DNA from: an uncultured Myxococcales bacterium
Lineage (GTDB): Bacteria > Myxococcota > UBA727 > VGSZ01
DNA length: 64,000 nucleotides
Assembly (NCBI GenBank): GCA_964580865.1
Contig: CAZONM010000001.1
Coordinates: forward strand, 2,825 to 66,824
Reading direction: 5' to 3'
Both the position numbers and the translations under genes were made by a program. Positions 5,449 to 56,114 of this stretch are shown here, one piece after another; positions within the stretch are counted from its first letter, which is position 1, and each line of letters opens with the position of its first letter. The notes beneath the pieces were generated by a model that did not search any database, was not told the origin of the DNA, and worked only from the letters and a program-made list of their open reading frames with translations.

Positions 5449-5955
5449 TCACTTGGTGCGGCGCCGCGAGGGCTTCTTCTCCCGAGCGCATGCCTTGGCC
5501 TGTGCCGCGACCGCGCTCGCGAAGCGCGTGAGGAAACGCTCGAGCTCGTCGATGGCGGTGGGGTCCATGTCGGCGAGCGCGACCTCCATTGCGGCCTCGA
5601 CGGTGCCTGGGGTCTTCACGTCCAAGCGCCGACCGCGCGGCGTGAGCACGATGGCCGTACGCCGCGCGTCGTCGGACGCCACGCGCCGCTCGAGGTAGCC
5701 GAGCTCCTCGAGCCGCTGGATGTGCCCCGTCATCGTGCTCGCGTCGAGGTGCAGGAAGGCGGCCAGCTCTCCCGCGGCGATGTGCGGGCGCCGTCCGATG
5801 ACGCGCAGCACGAGCCGCTGCGGGCCGGTGAGCCCGAGGTGGCTGCCCATCGCGCGCGACAGCTGTTGCATGGCGTGGTCGACGGCCCAGACCTGCCGCA
5901 GCAGCTCGAGCGCGCGCCCCAGGGGCTGCTTCTCGACGATCGGGTCGTCGAACAT
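5449..5955 (-). CDS. MarR-family transcriptional regulator
   Basis: ORF 5449..6084; the likely start is Met44 (ATG at 5955, MFDDPIVEK...); winged HTH LTGPQRLVLRVIGRRPHIAAGELAAFLHLDASTMTGHIQRLEELGYLER. Confidence 0.7.
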   Translation of the reverse strand: MFDDPIVEKQPLGRALELLRQVWAVDHAMQQLSRAMGSHLGLTGPQRLVLRVIGRRPHIAAGELAAFLHLDASTMTGHIQRLEELGYLERRVASDDARRTAIVLTPRGRRLDVKTPGTVEAAMEVALADMDPTAIDELERFLTRFASAVAAQAKACAREKKPSRRRTK

Positions 5956-6092
5956 GAGCGATCCTCCTGGCGCGGCAGGGCGCCAACGATTGCTTCGGTA
6001 CCAAAGGAACCGGTCGGCGGGAAGGCACCACTCCGAGCAGACCGCGTCGCCCGCCGCCCATCGACCAGGGCCAGCCGGCCGCACACGCCCCG

Positions 6093-7736
6093 GTGCGGCC
6101 CGGCATCGGCGAGGGTCACCGCGTGCACGCTGAGCTCGCCGTCGTCACCCTCTTCGCCGTCGCCTCCATCGTCGCGCTCATCGCCAAGCGCTTCCGCCTG
6201 CCGTACACGGTCGCGCTCGTGGTCGCGGGCTTGACGCTCGGCTCCATCGATGTCGTCGACCCGCCGCAGCTCACCAAGGATCTGCTGTACGCGGTGTTCC
6301 TGCCGGGCCTGCTCTTCGAGGCGTCCTTCCACCTCGAGCTCAGGAAGTTCTGGTCGAACCGCCTCGCCATCCACGCGCTCGCCGTGCCCGGCGTCGTCGC
6401 CAGCATCCTGTTCACGGCGGCCCTGTTCACGCCCGTCGCCGATGTGCTCCACCTGGCGGCGAACGTCCGCTTCGTCGACGGGCTCGTCTTCGCCGCCATC
6501 CTGGCGGCGACCGATCCCATCGCGGTGGTGTCGCTGTTCAAGAGCCTGGGTGCGCCCAAGCGCCTCGCCGTCCTCATCGAGGGCGAGAGCCTGTTCAACG
6601 ACGGCACCGCCGTGGTGCTGGTGGGCATCATCCTGGTGCTCGCCACCGGCGGCTCGATGTCGGTCGCGAGCGCCAGCCTCCAGTTCCTGTTCGTGGTGGG
6701 GGTGGGCGGGCTCATCGGCGCCGGCATCGGCTACGCCATCAGCCTCGTGATCCAACGGGTGGACGACCCGATGATCGAGATCACCCTCACCACCATCGCG
6801 GCGTGGGGGTCGTTCATGGTCGCCGAGCAGGTGCACGCGTCCGGCGTCATCGCCACGGTGGCCGCCGGCATGATCTGCGGCAACTTCGGCAAGCGCACCG
6901 GCATGTCGCCCTCCACCATCGTCGCCACCGAGACCTTCTGGGAGTACATCGCGTTCGCGCTCAACTCGATCGTGTTCCTGCTCATCGGCTTCGAGGTGCA
7001 CGTCGACGACATCGTGGCCAGCTGGCTGCCCATCGTGGTCGCCTGGCTCGCCGTCACGGGCGCCCGGGCCGTGGTCGTCTATGGGGTGGCCGGGCTCCTG
7101 CGCAGGACGAAGGAGCGCATGCCGTGGTCGTGGGCCGGCATCCTCGCCTGGGGCGGGCTGCGCGGCGGGCTGTCGATGGTGCTGGTCCTCTCGCTCGTGA
7201 CCGACTTCCCGCACCGGCAGTTCCTCATCACCGTCACCTTCGGCGTGGTGCTGCTGTCCATCCTCTTGCAAGGGCTGAGCATCGGGCCCGCGCTCAAGAA
7301 GCTCGGCGTCATCGGGGGCCGCGCCGATCGGCTGGAGCTCGAGGGCACCCGAGCGGCGCTCGCGGCCGCCACCGCGGCGCGCGACGAGATCGAGACGCTG
7401 ACGGCGACGCACGGCATCCCCGGCGTCGTCGTCGAGGAGCTGCGCGCGGAGTATCAGCGGCGCCTGTCGGAGGCGGACGCCAAGGTGCGTGCGTCGCACC
7501 TGGAGCAGCAGGCCGTCATCGACGAGGAGCGCCGGCGGGCGCGCCGACACCTGCTGATGGTCGAGCGCGCCCGCGTGCGCGACCTGCTGCACGAGGGCCT
7601 GCTCAGCGAGGAGGCGGCGCAACCGCTCTTGGCTGACATCGACGCACGCCTGATGGATCTGGACGAGCCGAGCCTGCCGCCGCCGCCGACCTCGTCACCC
7701 ACTCCGCCGCCGTCGGCCGCGCTCCACGCGAGCTGA
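6093..7736 (+). CDS. Na+/H+ antiporter, CPA1/NhaP type, with a C-terminal cytoplasmic regulatory domain
   Basis: 547 aa; ~12 TM helices with CPA1 motifs (FLPGLLFEASF, ATDPIAVVSLF, ESLFNDGTAVV); start codon uncertain (an alternative GTG lies near 6121). Confidence 0.8.
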   Translation: MRPGIGEGHRVHAELAVVTLFAVASIVALIAKRFRLPYTVALVVAGLTLGSIDVVDPPQLTKDLLYAVFLPGLLFEASFHLELRKFWSNRLAIHALAVPGVVASILFTAALFTPVADVLHLAANVRFVDGLVFAAILAATDPIAVVSLFKSLGAPKRLAVLIEGESLFNDGTAVVLVGIILVLATGGSMSVASASLQFLFVVGVGGLIGAGIGYAISLVIQRVDDPMIEITLTTIAAWGSFMVAEQVHASGVIATVAAGMICGNFGKRTGMSPSTIVATETFWEYIAFALNSIVFLLIGFEVHVDDIVASWLPIVVAWLAVTGARAVVVYGVAGLLRRTKERMPWSWAGILAWGGLRGGLSMVLVLSLVTDFPHRQFLITVTFGVVLLSILLQGLSIGPALKKLGVIGGRADRLELEGTRAALAAATAARDEIETLTATHGIPGVVVEELRAEYQRRLSEADAKVRASHLEQQAVIDEERRRARRHLLMVERARVRDLLHEGLLSEEAAQPLLADIDARLMDLDEPSLPPPPTSSPTPPPSAALHAS

Positions 7737-7769
7737 GCGGAAACCCAAGCGCTCGCGGGTGGAGGCACC

Positions 7770-9092
7770 TCAGGCCGGCGTGGACGGGCCCACGGGTGTC
7801 GTCGCCGCCTCGCTCGCCGGCGGAGCAGCGGTCTCGCTCCTTGGCGGAGCAGCGGCAGCTTCGCTCGCAGGCGCCGCCAGGTACCCGCGAAACAGCCGAC
7901 CGAGCGCCCGCTCGACGAAGGGACGCTCGCGAAACAGCGTCAACAGCGCCGCGAGCGTGATGGTGAACAGCACGCAGCCAAAGACCGTCGCCTCGATGGT
8001 GGCGCCCTCCACCACGCCGGCCTGGGACGGGACCGCGGCGAGCACGGCGGCGGCCAAGCCCTTTGGCACCATCGCCGCCGCGATCTTGGCGTCCGCGCTC
8101 GTGGTCGTCGACGCGCGCAAGCTGAGCCGCACCACGAGCGGCCGCAGCAGGAACATCGCCACGGTGGCGAGGCCGCCAAAGACGAAAGGCTGGTAGCCGT
8201 CGAGCTTCAGGGCTGCGCCGAGGTAGACGAAGAAGAGCACCTTGAGGAAGAACGCCGACTCCGACAGGAAGGTGCGCTCCCCTTCCGTGAGCGCGAGCTC
8301 ACGCGCGTAGGGCTTGTTGGCGGCGAAGGTGTCGACGTTGCCAAGGACGATGCCGAAGGCGAGCACGGCGATGGCGCCGAAGGTCCCCACCGCCTCTGCG
8401 GCTGCGAACACCAGGAAGACCGCGGCGCCCATGGCGAGCAGGCTGGCGCGCCGGGCGCGCAGCGCGCGCAGCCCGAACGCCCAGCCGCCCGCCGCCGCGC
8501 CGCCGATGACCACGGCGCCCACGAATGACCAGGCCAGGTCGAAGGCGATGATCTTCGGCTGCAGCTCGCCCGCGACCAGCACGCCGGTCAATGCCAGCGT
8601 GACGACGATGCACAGCACATCGGAGACGGCGCTCTCGAGGGTGAGCACGGTGCGGGTCTTTGGTTGCAGCGGTAACAGGGCCACCATGGGGATGACCACG
8701 GCCGAGGAGGTGCCGCCGAGGATCGCGCCGAGGCAGAGGGCCGCGAGCGGCCGCATGCCAATGAGCGCCCAGCCGAGCACCCCCATCACCGCCATCGTCG
8801 CCAGGAAGTTGGCGAAGGTCAGGATGGTGGAGGGCGCGAGCGCCTCGCGTAGCTCCTGCACGCGCAGCCGGCTCGCGCCCTCGAACAGGATGAGGACGAG
8901 CGCGGCCGTGGTGAAGGTGCGGTCAATGCCCTTCAGATCGGCGACGTCGAACACGCCGCTCATCGAGGCGACCAGCCCGAGCAGCAAGAGCACGAGGACA
9001 TCGGGGACGCCGGTGCGGCGAAACAGCTCCTCGAGCGCCATGCCGACGACGACGAGGCCGGCGAGGACGGCCAGGATGACGGTCGCGCTCAT
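7770..9092 (-). CDS. cation/H+ antiporter (CPA1/NhaP-like)
   Basis: 440-aa polytopic protein, Na+/H+ exchanger-like (ILFEGASRL, LESAVSDVLCIV); convergent with the preceding antiporter. Confidence 0.7.
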   Translation of the reverse strand: MSATVILAVLAGLVVVGMALEELFRRTGVPDVLVLLLLGLVASMSGVFDVADLKGIDRTFTTAALVLILFEGASRLRVQELREALAPSTILTFANFLATMAVMGVLGWALIGMRPLAALCLGAILGGTSSAVVIPMVALLPLQPKTRTVLTLESAVSDVLCIVVTLALTGVLVAGELQPKIIAFDLAWSFVGAVVIGGAAAGGWAFGLRALRARRASLLAMGAAVFLVFAAAEAVGTFGAIAVLAFGIVLGNVDTFAANKPYARELALTEGERTFLSESAFFLKVLFFVYLGAALKLDGYQPFVFGGLATVAMFLLRPLVVRLSLRASTTTSADAKIAAAMVPKGLAAAVLAAVPSQAGVVEGATIEATVFGCVLFTITLAALLTLFRERPFVERALGRLFRGYLAAPASEAAAAPPRSETAAPPASEAATTPVGPSTPA

Positions 9093-9174
9093 GACGTGAC
9101 GCCTCCCTTCACGCGAGGACGATGACGCCCTGGACAGGGGCGCGGCGGCCGGGACCTGCTCGGGACGTACCGAC

Positions 9175-9927
9175 TCACGCCGCTCCCCTCCGCAGCGCGA
9201 TCAGCCGCTCGAGCAATCGATCGACGTCCTCCTGCGCGCCCACGAAGTAGGGCGCCGCGGACCTGCGCGCGCGGCCGACCCGAGCGGCGACCAAAGGATG
9301 ATCGCCCGACAGCGCGAACACGTCCTCGTCCGTCACGTCGTCGCCGAGATACAGTGCGGCGGCTGGTTGCAGTGCGTCCCACAGATGGAGCAACGCGTCG
9401 CCCTTGTGTTGCGCGGCTGCGGGCAGCACGTTGACGACGTGGTGACCGCTCATGGTGCGCAGGTCGCGCGGCAGCACCTCGAGGGCCGCGCGGATCCGGG
9501 CGAGGGCCGCGCGCGGATCGTGCGCGTTGCGGTAGTGGATCGACAGCGAGTAGCGCTTGTCCTCGATCTCGACCCCGCGCACGCCGTGGAGCGCGCGCAG
9601 CAGCCGCTCGTGGGTCCGCGCCAACGCGCGCGGCGCGGCGACAATCGCGCCCGGACCCTCCTGCCCGTGGTTGCCGATGACGTGCTCGACGTGGGTGCCG
9701 CGCAGACGGGCCTGCACGTCGCTGCGCGCGCGCCCGGAGATGACCGCGGTCGGGTACAACCCGCTGAGCTGCGCCAGCAACGAGCGCGTGATGGCGGAGA
9801 GCGCAGCCGCATGTCGGTCCGGCACAATGGGCGCGAGCGTGCCGTCGAAGTCGAAGGCGAGCAGGCAGGCGCTGCCGGCGAGCGCCTCCAGGATGCCGGC
9901 GCCGCGGCGCCCCAACAGGTCGATCAT
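9175..9927 (-). CDS. otsB: trehalose-6-phosphate phosphatase OtsB (HAD-IIB)
   Basis: HAD motif FDFDGTLAP, GRARSDV, KGDAL, LGDDVTDEDVF; the start at Met14 (9927) overlaps the otsA stop (ATGA). Confidence 0.8.
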   Translation of the reverse strand: MIDLLGRRGAGILEALAGSACLLAFDFDGTLAPIVPDRHAAALSAITRSLLAQLSGLYPTAVISGRARSDVQARLRGTHVEHVIGNHGQEGPGAIVAAPRALARTHERLLRALHGVRGVEIEDKRYSLSIHYRNAHDPRAALARIRAALEVLPRDLRTMSGHHVVNVLPAAAQHKGDALLHLWDALQPAAALYLGDDVTDEDVFALSGDHPLVAARVGRARRSAAPYFVGAQEDVDRLLERLIALRRGAA

Positions 9928-12155
9928 GCGCGCCCGAGCGCGAGCGCGCCGCGCCATGAGCTCCACCGATCGGCCATGCGCTCCTTGCGGCGCAGCTCGG
10001 CGGCGTCGATGATCATGCGGCCGGCCCAGCGATAGACGTTGAACTCGGCGACCATGCGGCGCATCGAGTGCATCCGTTCGCGCTGCTCACTGGCCGGCAT
10101 CTCCAGCGCGTGCGCCAGCGCCTCGGCGCTCTCGCCGATGTCGTAGGGGTTCACCACCAGCGCCTCGGTGAGGTCGCGCGCCGCGCCGGTGAACTGGCTC
10201 AGCACCAGCACGCCGAGCCCGTCTTCTCGCGCGGCGACGAATTCCTTCGCCACCAGGTTCATGCCGTCGTGCAGGCTGCTGACGAAGCACAGGTCGGCTG
10301 CGCGGTAGAAGCGAAACACGGTCTGCGGCTCGTGGTGCGCTTGCAGCAGGCGGATCGGCTGGTAGCCGTCACCGCCGAGCCGCGCGTTGATCGCCTGCAC
10401 CTGGGCCTGCACGCGCTCGTTCAGCTCGCGATAGCGCGGGATCTTGACGCGGCTCGGCGCCGCGAGCTGCACGAAGACGAAGCGGCCGCGCAGCTCCGGG
10501 TGGCGCAGCAACAGCTCCTCGACGGCCGCGAAGCGCTCCTCGACGCCCTTGGTGTAGTCGAGCCGATCGACACCGACGCCGATCAGGGTGTCCGGCGGCA
10601 GGCCCAGCTCCTCGCGCACGCCGCGCCGACACTGCGCCGCGTCCGGGATCTCCCCCAGCCAGTGCACCGGCCACTCGATCGAGATCGGGTAGGGGCGCAC
10701 CAGCGTGCGGCGCTCCCCTTGCACGATGGCGGTGGCCTCGCGATCGATGCGGCTCTCGAGGAAGGCGTCGGCCGAGTCGATGAAGTTCTTGCAGTGCTGC
10801 GCGGTGTGAAAGCCGAGGATGCTCGAGCCGAGCAGGCCGTTCAGCAGCTCTTCGCGCCAGGGGCAGATGCCGATGCGCTCGGCGTTCGGCCAGGGGATGT
10901 GCCAGAAGGTCAGGATGGTCGCGCGCGGCAGGCGCTTTCGGATCATGCGGGGCGCGAGCGCAAAGTGATAGTCCTGCACGAGCACGATGGGCTCGTCGGA
11001 GTCGATCTCGTCACAGACCGCGTCGGCGAAGCGCTGGTTGACCCGCTGGTAGTGGGCCCAGTCCTCGGCCCGGAACTGCGGCCGCTCGTGGGCGATGTGG
11101 CAGAGCGGCCACAGGCCCTCGTTGGAGAAGCCGTAGTAGTAGCCGTTCTCCTCCTCGTCGCTGAGCCAGACGCGGCGCACCAGATACGACTCCTCGCCGG
11201 GCGGCACGCGCACGCGATCGTGCGCGTCGACGGTCTGCCGGTCGGCGCTGCCGCTGCCGTGCGCGACCCATACGCCCGAGCACGCGCGCATCACCGGCTC
11301 GAGCGCGGTGACCAGGCCGCTCGCGGGGTGCTGCACGCGCACGTCCTCGCCGACCTTCTCGTGGATGTAGGGCTCGCGGTTGGCGAGGATGACGACGCGC
11401 TCTCCCTGCAGGTAGCGCTCGAGCGTGTCGTGCAGGCGGGTGGGGCTCCAGGTGCCGGCGCGCGCCTCATGGGCCGCCTCGTCCGCCAGGCGCTCGACGA
11501 GGGCGCGCACATCGCGCACCAGCGGTTGGAACTCGCGGCGGCCCTCGCCGCTCAACGCGCGCAGCATCTCGCGGCGCCACCTGCGCCAGGCGAAGCGGGC
11601 GCCGAGCAGCGTGACGATCGAGGTCAAGAGCGCCAGCACGAAGTACGAGCCGATCAGGAACGCGCGCGTCGTCGCCTCGCGGCGCTGCACGAAGCTCAGG
11701 TCGTGCACCAGCACTACGTCGCCGAGCCGCGCCTCGCCCTCCGTCACGCCGAGCACGCTCAACAGGACCGGCCCGGAGGGCAGCTCGGAGCGCTGGGTCC
11801 AGTGCTGGAGGTCGCCGTCGTCGCGCACGCGCGCCTGCTGGATGGCGCGGCACGAGAACTCCAGGGGGTAGAGCTCCGTGCTGGTCAGCGCCTTGCCGCC
11901 GGGATGGCAAGCGGCGGCGGCCATGATGCGGTCGTCGCGCGTGATGTTGCGCAGCACGGCGCCGAGGCGCTCGACGTCGGCCCCCCAGTGCTGCACCAGG
12001 CTGTCGCGCGCCGACTCGACCGCGAGCCGCGCGCGCAGATCGAGGTCGCGCTCGAACCAGCGCCGGGTGGTGTCGCGCATCACCACGTCGCCGACGACCG
12101 CGAGCCCCGCGAGCATCGCCAGCAGCCCGAGCAGCAGGATCAGCGTCCGCGGCAC
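9924..12155 (-). CDS. otsA: trehalose-6-phosphate synthase OtsA (GT20) fused to an N-terminal ~260-aa two-TM membrane/sensor-like extension
   Basis: The C-terminal ~480 aa carry the GT20 signature ([53 protein letters not shown]). The N-terminus has TM1 [18 protein letters not shown], a ~160-aa loop, then TM2 [23 protein letters not shown] start. Confidence 0.85.
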
Positions 12156-12164
12156 GGTTACGGG

Positions 12165-12187
12165 ATAACATCAAATGCTTTGATACC
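12165..12187. promoter_or_regulatory. 15-bp perfect palindrome ATCAAATGCTTTGAT in the otsA / GH15 divergent promoter region (coordinates approximate +/-2)
   Basis: Read directly in the AT-richer 59-bp intergenic region between otsA (start 12155) and the GH15 gene (start 12215). Confidence 0.45.
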
Positions 12188-12214
12188 CAAGCAAGCCGTG
12201 CTAGCCCGAAGCTC

Positions 12215-13984
12215 ATGCAGCTCGCGGAGCTCGGCCTCATCGGCAATTGCCAGTCGGCCGCGTTGGTCGCGCGCGACGGCGCCATCGTCTGGTCGTGCCT
12301 GCCGCGCTTCGACTCGCCGCCGGTGTTCGCGTCGCTGCTCGACGGGGCGGCGGGCGGGAGCTTCCGGATCGGCGCGCCCGACGGCCGGCCGGGGACGCAG
12401 CGCTACCTGCCGAACACCAACGTGCTCGAGACGCGCTTCGAAGATGCCAGCGGTGCCTTCCGTGTGCTCGACTTCATGCCGCGCTTCGTCCAGCACGGCC
12501 GGACCTTCCGCCCTACCAAGATCGTGCGCATCGTCGAGCCGCTCTTCGGCACGCCACGCATCAACGTCACCTGTGACCCGGTGCTCGGCTGGACGCGCGC
12601 CGCGCCGAGCCGCGAGGCGGGCTCGCACCACCTCGCGTGGCACGGCTTCTCCGCACACCTGCGCCTCACCACCGACGCGGCGCTGTCCTACCTCGACGCG
12701 GGCCCGTTCGCGCTCACCGAGCGCAAGCACTTCGTGCTCTCGTGGGACGCGCCGGTGGAGGAGCCGCTCGAGCCACTCTGTCAGCGCTTCCTCGAGCAGA
12801 CGCAGCGCTACTGGGTCCAATGGGTCAAGCACTGCGACGTGCCGCCCGCCTACCAAGAGCAGGTGATCCGCTCCGCCCTCGCGCTCAAGCTGCACTGCTT
12901 CGAGGACACCGGCGCCATCGTCGCCGCCGTCACCACGTCGCTACCGGAGGCACCCGGTGCCGCACGCAACTGGGACTACCGCTACTGCTGGCTGCGCGAC
13001 GCCTTCTACACGCTGGGCGCGTTCCGCCTGCTCGGCCACTTCGAGGAGCGCGAGCAGTTCCTCGACTTCCTGCTCAACGTGGCCTCGTCCACCCCCGACC
13101 TCGACCTCGCCCCGCTCTACCGCGTCGACGGCAAGAGCGACCTGACGGAGCAGACGCTCGAAGCGTGGCCGGGCTACCAAGGCAACCGGCCGGTGCGCGT
13201 CGGCAACGGCGCGGCGCTGCACCGGCAGCACGACGTGTTCGGCGAGATGGTGCTCGCGTTCACGCCGCTCTTCCTCGACGCGCGCTTTCGCGACCACGTC
13301 ACGCCGCCGGTGCTCGACCTGGTGGCGCGCCTGACCGACAAGGCCATCGCCGTCGCCGGTCAACCGGACGCCGGCATCTGGGAGGTGCGCAACACCTGGC
13401 GGCCGCAGACCTTCAGCACGCTGATGTGCTGGGCCGCGGCCGATCGCATGAGCCGCATCGCGGCGGCCCACCGCCCTGGTGCCGCCGCGGGCTACGCCGC
13501 CGCCGCGGCGAGCCTGCGCACGCAGCTGCTCACCCAGGCCGTGCACCCGACGCGCGGCTGCCTGGTGGCCGACCACGGCGGCACCGAGGTGGACGCCGCC
13601 TTGCTGCAGGCCATCACCCTCAACTTCCTCGCACCTGCCGATCCCATCGCGGGCCGCACCATCGACGCCGTGCGCGCCGACCTCGAGCACCACGGCTGGC
13701 TCAAGCGCTACCGCGTCGACGACGGCCTCGGCACGCCCAGCGTGGCGTTCACGCTGTGCACTTTCTGGCTGGTGGAGGCGCTCGCGCGCGTCGGGCGGCT
13801 CGACGAGGCGCGGGCGATCATGGCGCGCGTGCCGGAGATCCACTCGCCGCTCGGCCTGCTCTCGGAAGACCTCGACCCGCAAAGCGGAGTCATGTGGGGC
13901 AACTTCCCGCAGGCCTACTCGCACGTCGGGCTGATCCACGCCGCGTTCGCCGCCTCGCCGCCGTGGTCGGAGCTGGGCGCCTGA
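12215..13984 (+). CDS. glycoside hydrolase family 15 protein (glucoamylase/trehalase-like)
   Basis: 589 aa; the GH15 (alpha/alpha)6 core WDYRYCWLRDAFYT and ELGLIGNCQSAAL N-terminal motif resemble GH15-type trehalases, and the gene is divergent from otsAB. Confidence 0.8.
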   Translation: MQLAELGLIGNCQSAALVARDGAIVWSCLPRFDSPPVFASLLDGAAGGSFRIGAPDGRPGTQRYLPNTNVLETRFEDASGAFRVLDFMPRFVQHGRTFRPTKIVRIVEPLFGTPRINVTCDPVLGWTRAAPSREAGSHHLAWHGFSAHLRLTTDAALSYLDAGPFALTERKHFVLSWDAPVEEPLEPLCQRFLEQTQRYWVQWVKHCDVPPAYQEQVIRSALALKLHCFEDTGAIVAAVTTSLPEAPGAARNWDYRYCWLRDAFYTLGAFRLLGHFEEREQFLDFLLNVASSTPDLDLAPLYRVDGKSDLTEQTLEAWPGYQGNRPVRVGNGAALHRQHDVFGEMVLAFTPLFLDARFRDHVTPPVLDLVARLTDKAIAVAGQPDAGIWEVRNTWRPQTFSTLMCWAAADRMSRIAAAHRPGAAAGYAAAAASLRTQLLTQAVHPTRGCLVADHGGTEVDAALLQAITLNFLAPADPIAGRTIDAVRADLEHHGWLKRYRVDDGLGTPSVAFTLCTFWLVEALARVGRLDEARAIMARVPEIHSPLGLLSEDLDPQSGVMWGNFPQAYSHVGLIHAAFAASPPWSELGA

Positions 13985-13987
13985 CCA

Positions 13988-14923
13988 TCAGCGCGCGATG
14001 AACGCGAGCCCGGCCACGGCGAGCACGATCAGCGCCGCCCCGCTCCACCGGTTGTGACGGCCCACCAGCACCACCACGAGCGCGGCGCCCACCCCTGCGC
14101 CCGCGACGAGGATGGCCTCATGCGTCGCCGCCGCCGTCACCGCGGTCGGGAACAGCAGCGGCCCGAGGGCGACCGAGATGGTGGAGTCGGCCACGGACGC
14201 CCCGAGCAGATCGCCGGCCGCGAGCTGGGTGTTGCCCTTGCGCGCCGCGGTGAGCGCGACCACCAGCTCGGGTGCCGAGGTGCCGATCGACGCGCCGATG
14301 AACCCGACCACCAACGGCGGTGCGTCGAGCGCGGTCGCACCCCGCAGCACCCCATCGACCAGGAGAGCCGCGCCGCCGATGAGGCCGGCGAAGCCGACGG
14401 CGATGGTCAGGAGCTCACGCCCAATCGAGCGCGCTTGGGTGGCGCTCGACGGTGGCGCACGCTCGTCCCCAGACGGGCGCAGCGCCACCGCCATCGCCAC
14501 GACGAAGAGCGCGAGCAGGAGCGCGGCGTCGAGCCGGCCGAAGTGACCGTCGGCCAAGAGCCAGGCGCCCACGCCGAGCGCGACGAGGGCGATGCCGAGT
14601 TGGAGCGCGGGCAGGCGTCGGCGCAGCACCAGCGGCGCGCCAACGATGGGCACGAGCGCGAACGCGAGCGTGATCTGCACGAACACCGAGCCATACGAGT
14701 CGCCCACGTTGATGTCGCCCTGGCCTCGGTAGGACGCGACGACGGAGTTGGCGATCTCCGGCAGGTCGGTGCCGATGGCGACGAGCGTGAGCCCGATGGC
14801 GAAGGGCGAGAGCCCCAGGCGCGCCGCCAGCGCGATGCTGCCGCCCACCACTGCGTGGCTCGCCCACGCGGCAACCGCCACGCCGGCGCCGGCAAACAGG
14901 AGCGCAACGACCAGATCGGGCAC
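13988..14923 (-). CDS. Na+/Ca2+ exchanger (CaCA family, YrbG-like)
   Basis: 311 aa; two alpha-repeats (GLTLVAIGTDLPEIANS and GFIGASIGTSAPELVVAL), ~10 TM helices. Confidence 0.8.
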   Translation of the reverse strand: MPDLVVALLFAGAGVAVAAWASHAVVGGSIALAARLGLSPFAIGLTLVAIGTDLPEIANSVVASYRGQGDINVGDSYGSVFVQITLAFALVPIVGAPLVLRRRLPALQLGIALVALGVGAWLLADGHFGRLDAALLLALFVVAMAVALRPSGDERAPPSSATQARSIGRELLTIAVGFAGLIGGAALLVDGVLRGATALDAPPLVVGFIGASIGTSAPELVVALTAARKGNTQLAAGDLLGASVADSTISVALGPLLFPTAVTAAATHEAILVAGAGVGAALVVVLVGRHNRWSGAALIVLAVAGLAFIAR

Positions 14924-15207
14924 GCGCGCAGCCTACCCTTCCTGCCGGCAAGGGGCAGGGCGTTCGCGCGCAAGCTGCTCGGGCCCCCCATGTCTTCCCC
15001 GCGGGCGTCGGTCGCGCTCAGCCTCCTGGCGTCACCGATCGCACCGGTGCTCGCGCTCGCCCTACGGCGCCGCCCGTTCCTCGCCGCCGGCCTCGACACC
15101 TTCGTCCTCGTCTCCGTCAGCGGCGTGGCGGCGGAGGGCGCGAGCCCCAGCACCGGGGCGCGCACGTTGGAGGGTTTGCGCCGCCCTCCAACATTGCCAC
15201 AGTGCCG

Positions 15208-15533
15208 GCGTGTCCACCGTCGTCGTCTCCCGCGCCAAGCTCTGGCTCTACCGCGCCGTCGCGGTCCACCTCGCCGTCACCGCGCTCACGGGCCTCGCGC
15301 TCTACGCGCGTCCCCTCGACGATCGCCCCGGCTTGTACGGCGAGGTCGTCAAAGAGTGGCTCGTGATGATCCACAACGGCGAGTGGATCGGCCATCTGCT
15401 CTTCGGCAGGCGCTGGCTCACCGGCGTCGCGATCGGCGCCGCGCTCGCCTGGCCGCTGCTCCGGCACGCGCGCCGCGCGCTGGCCCCCGCCGCTAACCGA
15501 TCCGACGTCCTCGACGACGCACGCCCCGGCTGA
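15208..15533 (+). CDS. small His-containing membrane protein (hypothetical); possibly the 3' part of a frameshifted gene that begins at 14977
   Basis: GTG-start ORF with hydrophobic helices (VAVHLAVTALTGLALYA; WLTGVAIGAALAWPLL); an upstream ORF in another frame (14977.., MSSPRASVALSLLASPIAPVLALAL...) is separated from it by the hairpin at 15167..15191. Confidence 0.3.
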
Positions 15534-15597
15534 CCGGTTGGCCCTCCTCGCCCCGCACGACCTTGACAGCGCGCGTTCGGTGCCGTACAACGACTAC

Positions 15598-15616
15598 GAT
15601 AACGATTATCACAATC
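15598..15616. promoter_or_regulatory. Fur-box-like operator GATAACGATTATCACAATC (15/19 match to GATAATGATAATCATTATC) 30 nt upstream of the 15645 gene
   Basis: Seen directly in an AT-rich patch within otherwise >70% GC DNA; core inverted repeat GATAA-CGA-TTATC. Confidence 0.45.
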
Positions 15617-15644
15617 ACAACACGATCGCCACCACGGGACCCGC

Positions 15645-16457
15645 ATGCGCAGCCGCCGTCGCCACCTCCTCGCCGCCGCCCTCGTCGTCGCCACGGCGCT
15701 CCCGCTGGCGCAGGCCGCCCCCGCCACCGCCAGCGGCCGGCGCTTCACGTACACCTACGAGTCGCTGGTGCTCGCGCCCGGTCAGCTCGAGCTCGAGCCC
15801 TGGACCACCTTCCGCGGCGGGCGCGAGGAGCTGTACCTGCGCTTCGACGAGCGCATCGAGCTCGAGGTGGGCGTGATCGAGAACGTGCAGATGGCGTGGT
15901 ACCTGAACGCCAAGGCCGTCACCGAGGCCGCCGGGCCCGCGCTCAAGAAGGAGCTCGAGTTCACCGGGGTGTCGAACGAGTGGAAGTGGAAGATCCTCGA
16001 CCCCGTGGCCGACCCCGTGGGCCTGGCGCTCTACGGCGAGTGGACGGCGGCGCCGTCCGAGGCCGAGCTCGAGGCCAAGGTCATCGTCGACAAGCGCTTC
16101 GGCGACCTCATCGCCGCCGTGAACGTGGTGGGCGAGGTGGAGTGGGAGCTCGAGGAGCCCGGCGAGGTGGAGCAGGAGCTGGTGCTCGAGGTCGACGCCG
16201 GCCTCGCGTACCTGATCACGCCCGCCTTGGGGCTCGGCCTCGAGCTCGTCGACCACACCGACTTCGGCGGCGAGGGCTTCGAGCACTCCGCCGTCTTCGC
16301 CGGGCCCACCATCAGCTACGCGGGCGAGCGCTTCTGGGCCGCCGTCAGCGTGCTGCCCCAGGTGGTCGACCTCGGTCGCCTCGGCACCGCCGAGCTGCAA
16401 GACCTCCATCACCACGAGCGCATCAGCGCGCGTGTGCTGCTCGGCTTCGAGCTGTAA
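15645..16457 (+). CDS. secreted protein, acidic and beta-rich (possible small outer-membrane protein), hypothetical
   Basis: Signal peptide MRSRRRHLLAAALVVATALPLAQAAPA; alternating hydrophobic beta-strand pattern; C-terminus ...RVLLGFEL; preceded by the Fur-like box. Confidence 0.6.
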   Translation: MRSRRRHLLAAALVVATALPLAQAAPATASGRRFTYTYESLVLAPGQLELEPWTTFRGGREELYLRFDERIELEVGVIENVQMAWYLNAKAVTEAAGPALKKELEFTGVSNEWKWKILDPVADPVGLALYGEWTAAPSEAELEAKVIVDKRFGDLIAAVNVVGEVEWELEEPGEVEQELVLEVDAGLAYLITPALGLGLELVDHTDFGGEGFEHSAVFAGPTISYAGERFWAAVSVLPQVVDLGRLGTAELQDLHHHERISARVLLGFEL

Positions 16458-46033: not shown

Positions 46034-47509
46034 TTGGCGCGCCTGGGCAGCATCGACGACCTCCTATCGATCGAGGACGATCCGGCGATCCTCGGTTTCC
46101 GTTGCCCGGCTACGGGACTACTCCTTTGGCCACTCGTTCGGGTTGCGTTCCTGCGAGAAATCCTCGGTGAGGTGTTCTACGGCGGCGCGACGGCCCCAGC
46201 GCTTTCGGGATATTCCTTACGCGCGGTCCAGTCCTTGGCGAAGGCAGCTTGGCACGATTTTCGGCATTCGCCGAATGGTGCCGACGTTGTAGTCATGGCC
46301 TCCGGTGCGGGCCGGGTGATGCGGAGCGGCCAGTCGTACAATCGCCTTGCCGATCCATTCGTCGACGTCTTGCCAAAGGGCACGATCCTTATCGAGGATC
46401 TCTTTGGCTGGCAGTGGCCAGTGCTACGCCCAGGGTCAAGAGTGCTATTCCACACGCCGTTTCAGGTCGCCGCGAGCGTCGCCGGGCGGTGTTTGGTTCG
46501 TAGCCGTCACCGGTCGCTCGCCGATCAACTGATCGCATTCGTCGTCGATCGGGCGGGTAAGTCGCTCGGCTGGGCACCTCGTCCGATTCGACAGGCCAGC
46601 GTTGCCAGGATGCTTGCTCACAAGATGGCGGCGCTGCCGGTTCTTCAGCATGGGTACCGACAATTGTTCGAGAGGGTCCGTCCACGGCTTCTCTTGAAGG
46701 AAGAGGCCTGCTATGGCCCGTCGGCAATGCTGATTTCGGTTGCTCGCGAGTTTGGCATAATAACGGCTGAATACCAACACGGCGTTGTAGCGCCTGGTCA
46801 CGATGCGTACAATTTCGCCCCGACGCTTTGCGCATCACCCGCCTGGAGGGCAATCCTGCCAGATTGGTTCCTCAGCTACGGGCAATGGTGGGACGACCAA
46901 ATTAACGCACCGATCAAGCGGCGTGTGATTGGCAATCCGTATCGCAGTCTGTTACTAGAGGGATCCGGAACGGGGTCAATGACGTCTCGCCAGCATCGTG
47001 AGGTATTGGTACTCGGTGACGGCATTGAGACCAACGCCTATGTTGGCCTTGCTCGCGCGCTTGCGCAGGCGCTACCAACATGGCACGTCGTATTTCGGCC
47101 CCATCCACTCGAGCGGCAGCTCGTGTCGGACCGGCACCCGAATGGCATTCCTGTCGACGACGGTCGATTTTTGGAGGTCGATTTGCAGGGGGATCTCTAT
47201 CGTTCCTTCAAGCGGTCGACGGTCGTCATTAGCGAGATGTCAACGGGCCTGTTCGAAGCTATGGGATTGGTACAGGTACCGCTGCTTTGGGACACACCGA
47301 AGTCGCGGTTCACCTTGCCAACTCACAGCTTTGCCTCGTTTCGTACGGTCGATGAGTGCGCGGAGATTCTACGGAACCATGTCGGCGATGATGCTTGCCG
47401 GGACGACGCCGGCGCCATCTGGGCACCGGATTGGCAGTCAAGGTACCGCGCATTTCTCAACGACGTTCTTCAAGGCAATAATGCTCCTCTGGTCGAGAAT
47501 GTTGTGTAG
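46034..47509 (+). CDS. hypothetical protein of the island (491 aa) with a C-terminal GT-B/Rossmann-like domain (putative glycosyl- or glycerophospho-transferase-like)
   Basis: No named family recognised; C-terminal segment VLVLGDGIETNAYVGLARALAQALPTWHVVFRPHPLE...STVVISEMSTGLFEAMGLVQVPLL; paralogous to the C-terminal half of 49835..50737. Confidence 0.55.
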   Translation: MARLGSIDDLLSIEDDPAILGFRCPATGLLLWPLVRVAFLREILGEVFYGGATAPALSGYSLRAVQSLAKAAWHDFRHSPNGADVVVMASGAGRVMRSGQSYNRLADPFVDVLPKGTILIEDLFGWQWPVLRPGSRVLFHTPFQVAASVAGRCLVRSRHRSLADQLIAFVVDRAGKSLGWAPRPIRQASVARMLAHKMAALPVLQHGYRQLFERVRPRLLLKEEACYGPSAMLISVAREFGIITAEYQHGVVAPGHDAYNFAPTLCASPAWRAILPDWFLSYGQWWDDQINAPIKRRVIGNPYRSLLLEGSGTGSMTSRQHREVLVLGDGIETNAYVGLARALAQALPTWHVVFRPHPLERQLVSDRHPNGIPVDDGRFLEVDLQGDLYRSFKRSTVVISEMSTGLFEAMGLVQVPLLWDTPKSRFTLPTHSFASFRTVDECAEILRNHVGDDACRDDAGAIWAPDWQSRYRAFLNDVLQGNNAPLVENVV

Positions 47510-55028: not shown

Positions 55029-56114
55029 ATGTCGCGCACCGCGCTGATCACGGGCGTCACGGGCCAGGACGGCGCGTACCTCGCGGAGCTCTTGCTCGAT
55101 AAGGGCTACCAGGTCCACGGCATCAAGCGGCGCAGCTCGCTGTTCAACACCGACCGCATCGATCACCTCTACCACGACCCCCACGTGGCCGGGCGACGCT
55201 TCACGCTGCACCACGGTGACCTCACCGACTCGTCGAGCCTGATCCGTATCATCCAGCAGACCCAGCCCGACGAGATCTACAACCTCGCGGCACAGAGCCA
55301 CGTCGCGGTGAGCTTCGAGGAGCCTGAGTACACGGCGAACTCGGACGCGCTCGGCCCGCTGCGCGTGCTCGAAGCGATCCGCATCCTGGGCCTCGAGAAG
55401 AGGACGCGCTTCTACCAGGCGTCGTCCTCGGAGATGTATGGGCTCGTGCAGGCGGTGCCGCAGAACGAGCACACGCCCTTCTACCCGCGCAGCCCCTACG
55501 CCGTCGCCAAGCTGTACGCTTATTGGATCACGGTCAACTACCGCGAGGCCTACGGCATCTACGCCTGCAACGGCATCCTGTTCAACCACGAGTCGCCGCT
55601 GCGCGGCGAGACGTTCGTAACGCGCAAGATCACGCGCGCGCTGGCCCGCATCAAGCTGGGCATCCAAGACTGCCTGTGGCTCGGGAACCTGAACGCGCGC
55701 CGCGACTGGGGCCACGCGCGCGACTACGTCGTGATGCAGTGGCTCATGCTGCAACAAGACGCGCCCGACGACTACGTCGTCGCTACGGGTGTGCAGCGCT
55801 CGGTGCGCGAGTTCGTCGAGGCGGCGGCGCGCGAGTTGGATATCGAGCTTCGCTGGCAAGGCACGGGCGTCGACGAGAAGGGCTATGACCGCAGCGGCCG
55901 CTGCATCGTCGCGGTCGATCCACGCTACTTCCGCCCCACCGAGGTCGACACGCTGCTCGGCGACGCGTCCAAGGCGCGTGCCAAGCTCGGCTGGGCGCCC
56001 ACCGTCTCCTTCGAGCAGCTGGTCGCGGAGATGGCCAAGGAAGACCTCATCGCCGCGGAGCGCGATGAGCTGATCAAGCGCCACGGCTATCGCGCGCTGC
56101 TGCGGCATGAGTAG
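55029..56114 (+). CDS. gmd: GDP-mannose 4,6-dehydratase
   Basis: [37 protein letters not shown]...; SDR YxxxK ([10 protein letters not shown]); 361 aa. Confidence 0.93.

Follow-up and report, generated by a model that had tools for sequence, protein, structure and literature searches.

The 59-bp gap between the divergent otsA and GH15 genes is probably a compact pair of overlapping divergent promoters of the sigma-70 type, with predicted transcription starts at, or a few bases from, the two start codons and with both mRNAs leaderless. The inverted repeat ATCAAA-TGC-TTTGAT (ATCAAATGCTTTGAT) inside this gap would be a by-product of the promoter elements and probably does not serve as a dedicated binding site for a regulator. 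If the promoter reading is true, the region that controls trehalose synthesis and hydrolysis would measure about 59 bp without any untranslated leader, regulation would be confined to transcription initiation, and otsA and GH15 would be competitors for the same piece of DNA. Such an arrangement would provide a compact, testable model of the way in which myxobacteria under osmotic or desiccation stress co-express opposing metabolic activities or alternate between them.

Gene context of the otsA/GH15 gap

Within the window (the whole 64-kb stretch of DNA that was analysed), the gap at 12156–12214 extends exactly from the GTG start codon of otsA (12155, minus strand) to the ATG start codon of the GH15 gene (12215, plus strand). 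Its GC content is 51%, compared to 69.5% for the whole window, and 60-nt segments with a GC fraction <0.6 fall only in this gap within the region 11000–13500. This result confirms the sequence-only reading of this DNA, which had singled out the gap as the only AT-biased stretch of the region. The gap had also been described as the shared control region of divergent trehalose genes, and the gene assignments support this description: otsA, with a GT20 domain, and then otsB are encoded on the minus strand, and a GH15 gene with a TREH_N domain is encoded on the plus strand.

The trehalose-6-phosphate-synthase-like gene otsA (9924..12155, minus strand) encodes 743 aa from its GTG start, with the GT20 domain at residues 253–717. 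The trehalase-like GH15 gene (12215..13984, plus strand) encodes 589 aa from its ATG start, with the TREH_N domain at the N-terminus, and the best NCBIfam similarity of its protein was to the archaeal trehalase TreH1, below the cut-off. Both genes are predicted to be leaderless (see below). The trehalose-phosphatase gene otsB (9175..9966, minus strand) is located directly downstream of otsA, and its ORF as listed begins with the GTG at 9966 and shares 43 nt with the 3' end of otsA (9924–9966), indicating either translational coupling or a true otsB start that lies further downstream. About 250 residues precede the GT20 domain in OtsA; they contain two hydrophobic segments, had no Pfam match, and would anchor the protein in the membrane by prediction. 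The hydrophobic segments flank a region with conserved Cys (AAAACHPGG...EFSCRA) within residues 1–250 (11400–12155, minus strand), and tblastn identified the same N-terminal extension adjoining GH15 genes in Nitrospira, Burkholderiales-like, Bacteriovoracaceae, and Myxococcota loci. A membrane-anchored OtsA, possibly coupled to a sensor, seems to be under-described.

The trehalose genes are located within an ion-homeostasis island (5449–16457 of the window) that also contains two Na+/H+ exchangers (6093–7736, plus strand; 7770–9092, minus strand), a Na+/Ca2+ exchanger (13988–14923, minus strand), and a MarR-family regulator gene (5449–5955, minus strand). Genes of like kinds (Na_H_Exchanger, Na_H_antiport_1, Na_Ca_ex, and CitMHS) are neighbors of the pair in relatives. 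The MarR-family gene is the regulator gene nearest to the gap, at a distance of about 6.2 kb, and the earlier statement that no regulator gene is adjacent was thus nearly right. Based on longest-ORF starts, the MarR gene and the divergent Na+/H+ exchanger are only 8 bp apart; the MarR gene really starts at 5955, and the gap between them is then about 137 bp (5956–6092). This second gap contains GGTACCAAAGGAACCGGT (~5999–6016), a possible MarR site that is unrelated to ATCAAA-N3-TTTGAT.

The loci used for comparison came from species-representative genomes (L001, L002, L004, L006–L008, L012, L013, L016, L018, and L072), from metagenome contigs (L082, L083, L088, and others), and from contigs that encode the closest GH15 proteins: L161 and L173 (93% identity), L162 and L163 (85%), and L164, L165, L168, L169, L170, and L171 (~75%). 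The best identity was 72% in the genome scan and 67% in the metagenome scan, and the protein search yielded 93%, 85%, and 85%. L173 is almost identical to L161, and the window and L161 are 83% identical in the gap and 91% identical in the coding sequence. The closest genomes are metagenome-assembled genomes of Myxococcota (Polyangia-like), and the size of the gap is consistently 53–62 bp in the myxobacterial group.

Predicted divergent promoters

The GH15 promoter would drive transcription rightward from the −35 box TTGATA (12180–12185, plus strand), whose TTG is invariant in the alignment, via a 16-nt spacer (12186–12201) and the extended −10 element TGC TAGCCC (12199–12207), which ends 7 nt (GAAGCTC) before the ATG at 12215. 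The otsA promoter would drive it leftward from the −35 box TTGGGT (12185..12190, minus strand) via a 17-nt spacer (12184..12168) and the extended −10 element TGT TATCCC (12162..12170), which ends 6 nt (GTAACC) before the GTG at 12155. All features of a sigma-70-type promoter with an extended −10 (TTGNNN, 16–18 nt, TGn, and TA) are present on both strands of the window, and from them we infer the use of both promoters by RNA polymerase as well as the sigma factor involved. The T at position 6 of a canonical −10 box (TANNNT) is absent from both boxes in the window (TAGCCC and TATCCC) and present in several relatives (TAGTTT, TACGGT, TAGGCT, and TACTCT). A generic scan for sigma-70 promoters and terminators at 11900–12500 found nothing because both −10 boxes in the window lack this final T, which is a real weakness of the promoter model. 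The promoter consensus sequences of the sigma-54, RpoE, and SigB/SigF types were compared by eye and did not fit.

Using the pattern TTGNNN-N16/17-TANNNN-N5-9-(ATG/GTG), we scanned both strands of the 64-kb window and found three matches, two of which end exactly at the otsA GTG and the GH15 ATG. The third (TTGGTC-17-TACCAA-9-ATG) is located at 46996–47034 on the minus strand. Among 14 loci with the same otsA/GH15 pair (GH15 identity 65–93%), the start-codon-anchored pattern was found in 23 of 28 promoter directions, compared to a mean of 0.44 and a maximum of 4 in shuffles, and in 25 of 28 when the otsA start of L161 is set to the GTG homologous to that of the window and the start of L002 to its second ATG; these counts overstate the number of independent observations because the loci are phylogenetically related. 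Two of the five misses are thus a matter of start-codon choice (in L161, an ATG precedes the homologous GTG by two codons; in L002, two ATGs are adjacent). A TG is located directly upstream of the TA in 19 of the 23 directions listed by the scan and, by eye, also in the two corrected directions. A MAFFT alignment of 12 gaps shows complete or ≥90% conservation of both −10 TA, both extended −10 TG (CA), TT.GA and CCAA of the −35 boxes, and the start codons; the spacers are diverged.

The 6–7 nt before the otsA GTG and the GH15 ATG contain no Shine-Dalgarno sequence, whereas AGGAGG precedes the nearby MarR gene. The first T of each −10 box in the window is located 12–13 nt upstream of the start codon, and the distance between the −10 end and the start codon, which is 7 nt for GH15 and 6 nt for otsA, is 5–9 nt in relatives. 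Because the −10 boxes end 5–9 nt from the starts and a Shine-Dalgarno sequence is missing, the otsA and GH15 mRNAs are both predicted to be leaderless. For otsA, the GTG start counts against this prediction, since leaderless mRNAs are more usually initiated at AUG than at GTG. Zheng et al. (2011, PMC3160421) recognize leaderless genes by a TA signal ~12 nt ahead of the start codon, and in myxobacteria, pexR has been proposed to have a leaderless sigma-A transcript (PMC12754779).

The two −35 boxes would abut or overlap in a crossed arrangement, since each is located within the spacer of the other promoter, and together they would form a conserved central dyad, with the rightward GH15 −35 box as its left half and the leftward otsA −35 box as its right half. 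A back-to-back arrangement of the −35 boxes was considered and rejected on the basis of this geometry. The −10 elements, at 12167 and 12202, would be separated by 35 bp and the predicted starts by ~60 bp, and two polymerases may compete for the shared 35 bp. In relatives, the dyad (TTGGAT/ATCCAA, TTGGATATCCAA) is located at the exact center of the gap. Its form in the window is TTTGATACCCAA (12179–12190), the equivalent of TTGGATATCCAA and composed of the two crossed −35 hexamers, inside a wider imperfect palindrome, GCTTTGATACCCAAGC (12177–12192), whose center (12184.5) is the gap midpoint. The perfect form TTGGATATCCAA is present in L001, L162, L163, L164, L168, and L170, and variant forms were found in L165 (TTGGATAGCCAA), L169 (TTGGATGTCCAA), L171 (TTGGATATCAAA), L002 (TTGGAGTTCCAA), L012 (TTGCGCGCCAA), L088 (TTGAGATATCCAA), and L161 (TTTGATGCCCAA).

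Across these forms only TTG and CAA are invariant, and positions 4–6 vary. TTG and CAA are separated by N6 in most loci, by N5 in the window, L161, and L012, and by N7 in L088, and the distance between the −10 elements is 35 bp in the window and ten relatives (by eye) and 34 bp in L012. Variable TTG...CAA spacing with a near-constant −10 distance is consistent with two hexamers that act independently rather than with a rigid dimer site. The L166 and L167 loci provide a natural control, in which GH15 is located beside an unrelated gene without a divergent otsA: the CCAA half is lost, and TTGGCC-17-TGC TACATC-6-GTG (i.e., TTGGCC-17-TGCTACATC-6-GTG) is retained. Counting against a promoter-only reading, conservation across the full 12-bp TTGGATATCCAA is tighter than is typical of a −35 box. 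In the window, TTGGATATCCAA has 9 matches with ≤3 mismatches, compared to 3.1 expected, and only one other match with 2 mismatches, at 55836.

The public GH15 call in L164 (1501–1543; 603 aa, likewise 603 aa in P0021 and P0033) begins 14 codons too early, at an ATG inside the promoter, and its protein start, MLGYPTFAWYTPRF, is the translated TTGGATATCCAA dyad. Given the leaderless layout, this early start looks like an annotation artefact.

Alternative readings of the inverted repeat and the central dyad

The inverted repeat at 12170–12184 had been reported as a perfect 15-bp palindrome centered between the two start codons. Its arms do pair at 6 of 6 positions, but the central TGC is not self-complementary, which makes it a 6-3-6 inverted repeat, and its center (12177) is 8 bp to the left of the midpoint (12185). 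Among 20,000 shuffles of the 59-nt gap, 8.8% contained at least one perfect inverted repeat with 6-bp arms and a loop of 0–10 nt, and 1.2% contained one with a loop of exactly 3 nt; there are about 40 intergenic gaps in the window. The statistical significance of the repeat is modest. Its right arm, TTTGAT, is the GH15 −35 box offset by one base, and its left arm, ATCAAA, lies inside the otsA promoter spacer, with a first base (A at 12170) that complements the T of the TGn of the otsA promoter and is the only conserved column of this arm in the MAFFT alignment of 12 gaps. According to the promoter reading, the right arm would be conserved because it serves as the GH15 −35 box, the left arm would be spacer DNA that is complementary by chance in this genome, and the repeat would have no function of its own.

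We consider it unlikely that ATCAAA-N3-TTTGAT is the operator of a dimeric, trans-acting regulator, as the sequence-only reading had proposed. A bound protein would cover the GH15 −35 box together with the spacer and extended −10 of otsA, and would most plausibly repress both genes until an osmotic or desiccation signal arrives. Overlap with core elements of both promoters is consistent with this role, as is a dyad of two half-sites at fixed spacing with 6 of 6 pairs, and inverted repeats with AT-rich arms are rare in the window (5 of 538). In addition, 5 of 6 pairs are kept in L161 and L173 (ACCAAA-TGC-TTTGAT), in L162 and L163 (ATCCATCC(G/A)TTGGAT), and in L164 (ACCCAATGCTTGGAT), and pair 4-12 differs on both sides (A:T in the window lineage, C:G in L162, L163, and L164), which represents one compensatory change. 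However, the left arm is already disrupted in the closest relative (ACCAAA in L161/L173, at 93% protein identity), and it retains only 1–4 of 6 pairs in seven of the nine more distant loci counted (L165: 4; L168: 3; L169, L170, L171, and L002: 2; L001: 1). The two half-sites are not both conserved in orthologous control regions, and the −35 role fully accounts for the conservation of the right arm.

The search for further copies of the motif that had been proposed along with the operator was run on the 64-kb window and found none with ≤2 mismatches (0.10 expected; at least one match in 10 of 100 shuffles), and a chance repeat arises in 1–9% of gap shuffles. Among the loci compared, no regulator is consistently linked to the otsA/GH15 pair: the MarR-family gene of the window is 6 kb away and has no site similar to ATCAAA-N3-TTTGAT upstream of it, a histidine kinase and an OmpR-type response regulator are located by GH15 in L168 (3218–4767), a GerE/LuxR-type gene is located by GH15 in L170 (4447–4770), and the other loci have none. 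Neither the L168 nor the L170 regulators are common across loci. The 64-kb window and the loci of relatives thus contain neither additional copies near co-regulated genes nor a linked regulator. The repeat is thus retained in a narrow clade, imperfectly and with one compensatory change, and lost in the other loci, a pattern that argues weakly for a lineage-specific site and more strongly for an incidental origin of the perfect palindrome. What stands of the operator proposal is a symmetric element at the center of the gap; the conserved one is the adjacent TTGGAT/ATCCAA dyad, and the left arm of the repeat is not conserved. For a transcription-factor site of any kind in the gap, the central dyad included, the case is possible but on balance improbable.

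A combination of both ideas appears decidedly unlikely. Here, the mirror-symmetric promoter would act as a switch between trehalose making and breaking, at which the two RNA polymerase sites are mutually exclusive (35 bp shared). The extra half-site at 12170–12175 and the GH15 −35 box would form an operator of the window lineage, through which a trans-acting regulator would shut both leaderless promoters or tilt the balance between them.

It is very improbable that the central TTGGAT/ATCCAA dyad is itself a transcription-factor site, instead of or besides the −35 boxes, with the left arm of the repeat as a third half-site. Its 12 bp are identical (12/12) in the six loci with the perfect form (L001, L162, L163, L164, L168, and L170) despite diverged spacers, and the left arm resembles the ATCCAA half-site (ATCAAA in the window, ACCCAA in L164, and ATCCAT in L162/L163). 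A like dyad is also central in the 48–51-bp gaps of a second locus group that includes Nitrospira (L013 and L018), Bacteriovoracaceae (L016), and metagenome contigs (L082 and L083). These dyads (TTTGATATCAAA, TTTGAGATCAAA, TTTGCGACCAAA, and TTTGGCCCCAAA) are very similar to the myxobacterial one, and dyad symmetry is still present in L083 (TTTCGTGAAGAAA). They are flanked on the otsA side by an invariant AGTTTAC and, 6–8 nt before the GH15 start, by a TATGGT/TATAAA box. The second-group loci do not fit the myxobacterial promoter geometry: the dyad lies within the promoter spacer and, being too near the start codons, cannot be a −35 box, so that a protein-binding role for the central dyad is still conceivable. 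However, half-site spacings of N5, N6, and N7 with TTG and CAA alone invariant are typical of −35 boxes, the second half is gone where the divergent gene is missing (L166/L167), a center at −30.5 would be unusual for an activator, and no regulator accompanies the pair consistently.

The probability that the repeat acts via structure or a nucleoid protein (a 5' UTR hairpin, a cruciform, or an IHF-like site, WATCAANNNNTTR) is negligible: the isolated 26-nt stretch folds better than shuffles (z = −4.3), and the minus strand TATCAAAGCATTT has one mismatch compared to the IHF consensus, but the hairpin has a free energy of only −1.8 kcal/mol, the minimum-energy folds of the two strands of the whole gap do not include it, the region would be untranscribed if the mRNAs are leaderless, the IHF match is lost in L161 and other relatives, and an Rfam search of the region at a permissive threshold returned only sub-threshold noise, none of it overlapping the gap. 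Neither a curated family match nor a stable conserved fold was thus found. We favor the pair of overlapping promoters, which for annotation implies that promoter elements can give rise, as a by-product, to a perfect palindrome in a divergent gap.

Comparison with known systems

No literature was found on the otsA/GH15 gap or on promoter elements of myxobacterial trehalose genes. Divergent promoters were reportedly divided by Beck and Warren in 1988 into back-to-back, overlapping, and face-to-face classes, and the otsA/GH15 arrangement is a case of overlapping divergent promoters, a class that has long been known. Like these, it would place two opposed sigma-70-type promoters in one short region, where a bound protein or RNA polymerase affects both. 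In contrast to these, the crossed, abutting −35 hexamers would form a 12-bp palindrome, both transcripts are predicted to be leaderless, and the entire control region fits within 55–62 bp. The near mirror symmetry, the crossed and abutting −35 boxes, and the predicted absence of leaders on both sides are unusual.

Regulation of otsBA in E. coli is RpoS-dependent, and sigma-S promoters often have a C at −13. The two systems are alike in that trehalose synthesis genes would be under stress-related promoter control, whereas the gene order and the divergent GH15 partner differ. Many −10 boxes in the loci compared here are preceded by TGC, which corresponds to a C at −13 and is a sequence resemblance to sigma-S promoters.

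Warman et al. (bioRxiv 10.1101/2020.01.31.928960) described bidirectional promoters with overlapping symmetric −10 elements, in which the starts are 7–25 bp apart, mostly 18 bp. As in these promoters, pseudo-symmetric DNA would drive divergent transcription, with elements that coincide on opposite strands. However, the symmetric part of the otsA/GH15 gap would be composed of −35 elements, the −10 elements are 35 bp apart and do not overlap, and the predicted starts, at a distance of ~60 bp, are outside the range of 7–25 bp.

The leaderless genes reported by Zheng et al. (2011, PMC3160421) in Actinobacteria and Deinococcus have TANNNT ~12 nt upstream of the start codon. The otsA and GH15 genes share with them a −10 box that begins with TA 12–13 nt upstream of the start codon, the lack of a Shine-Dalgarno sequence, and a GC-rich genome. 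They differ in having a myxobacterium-like host, −10 boxes without the final T, and a putative reliance on TGn and a TTG −35 box, and would thus add predicted leaderless promoters of the extended −10 type to a group in which few have been documented.
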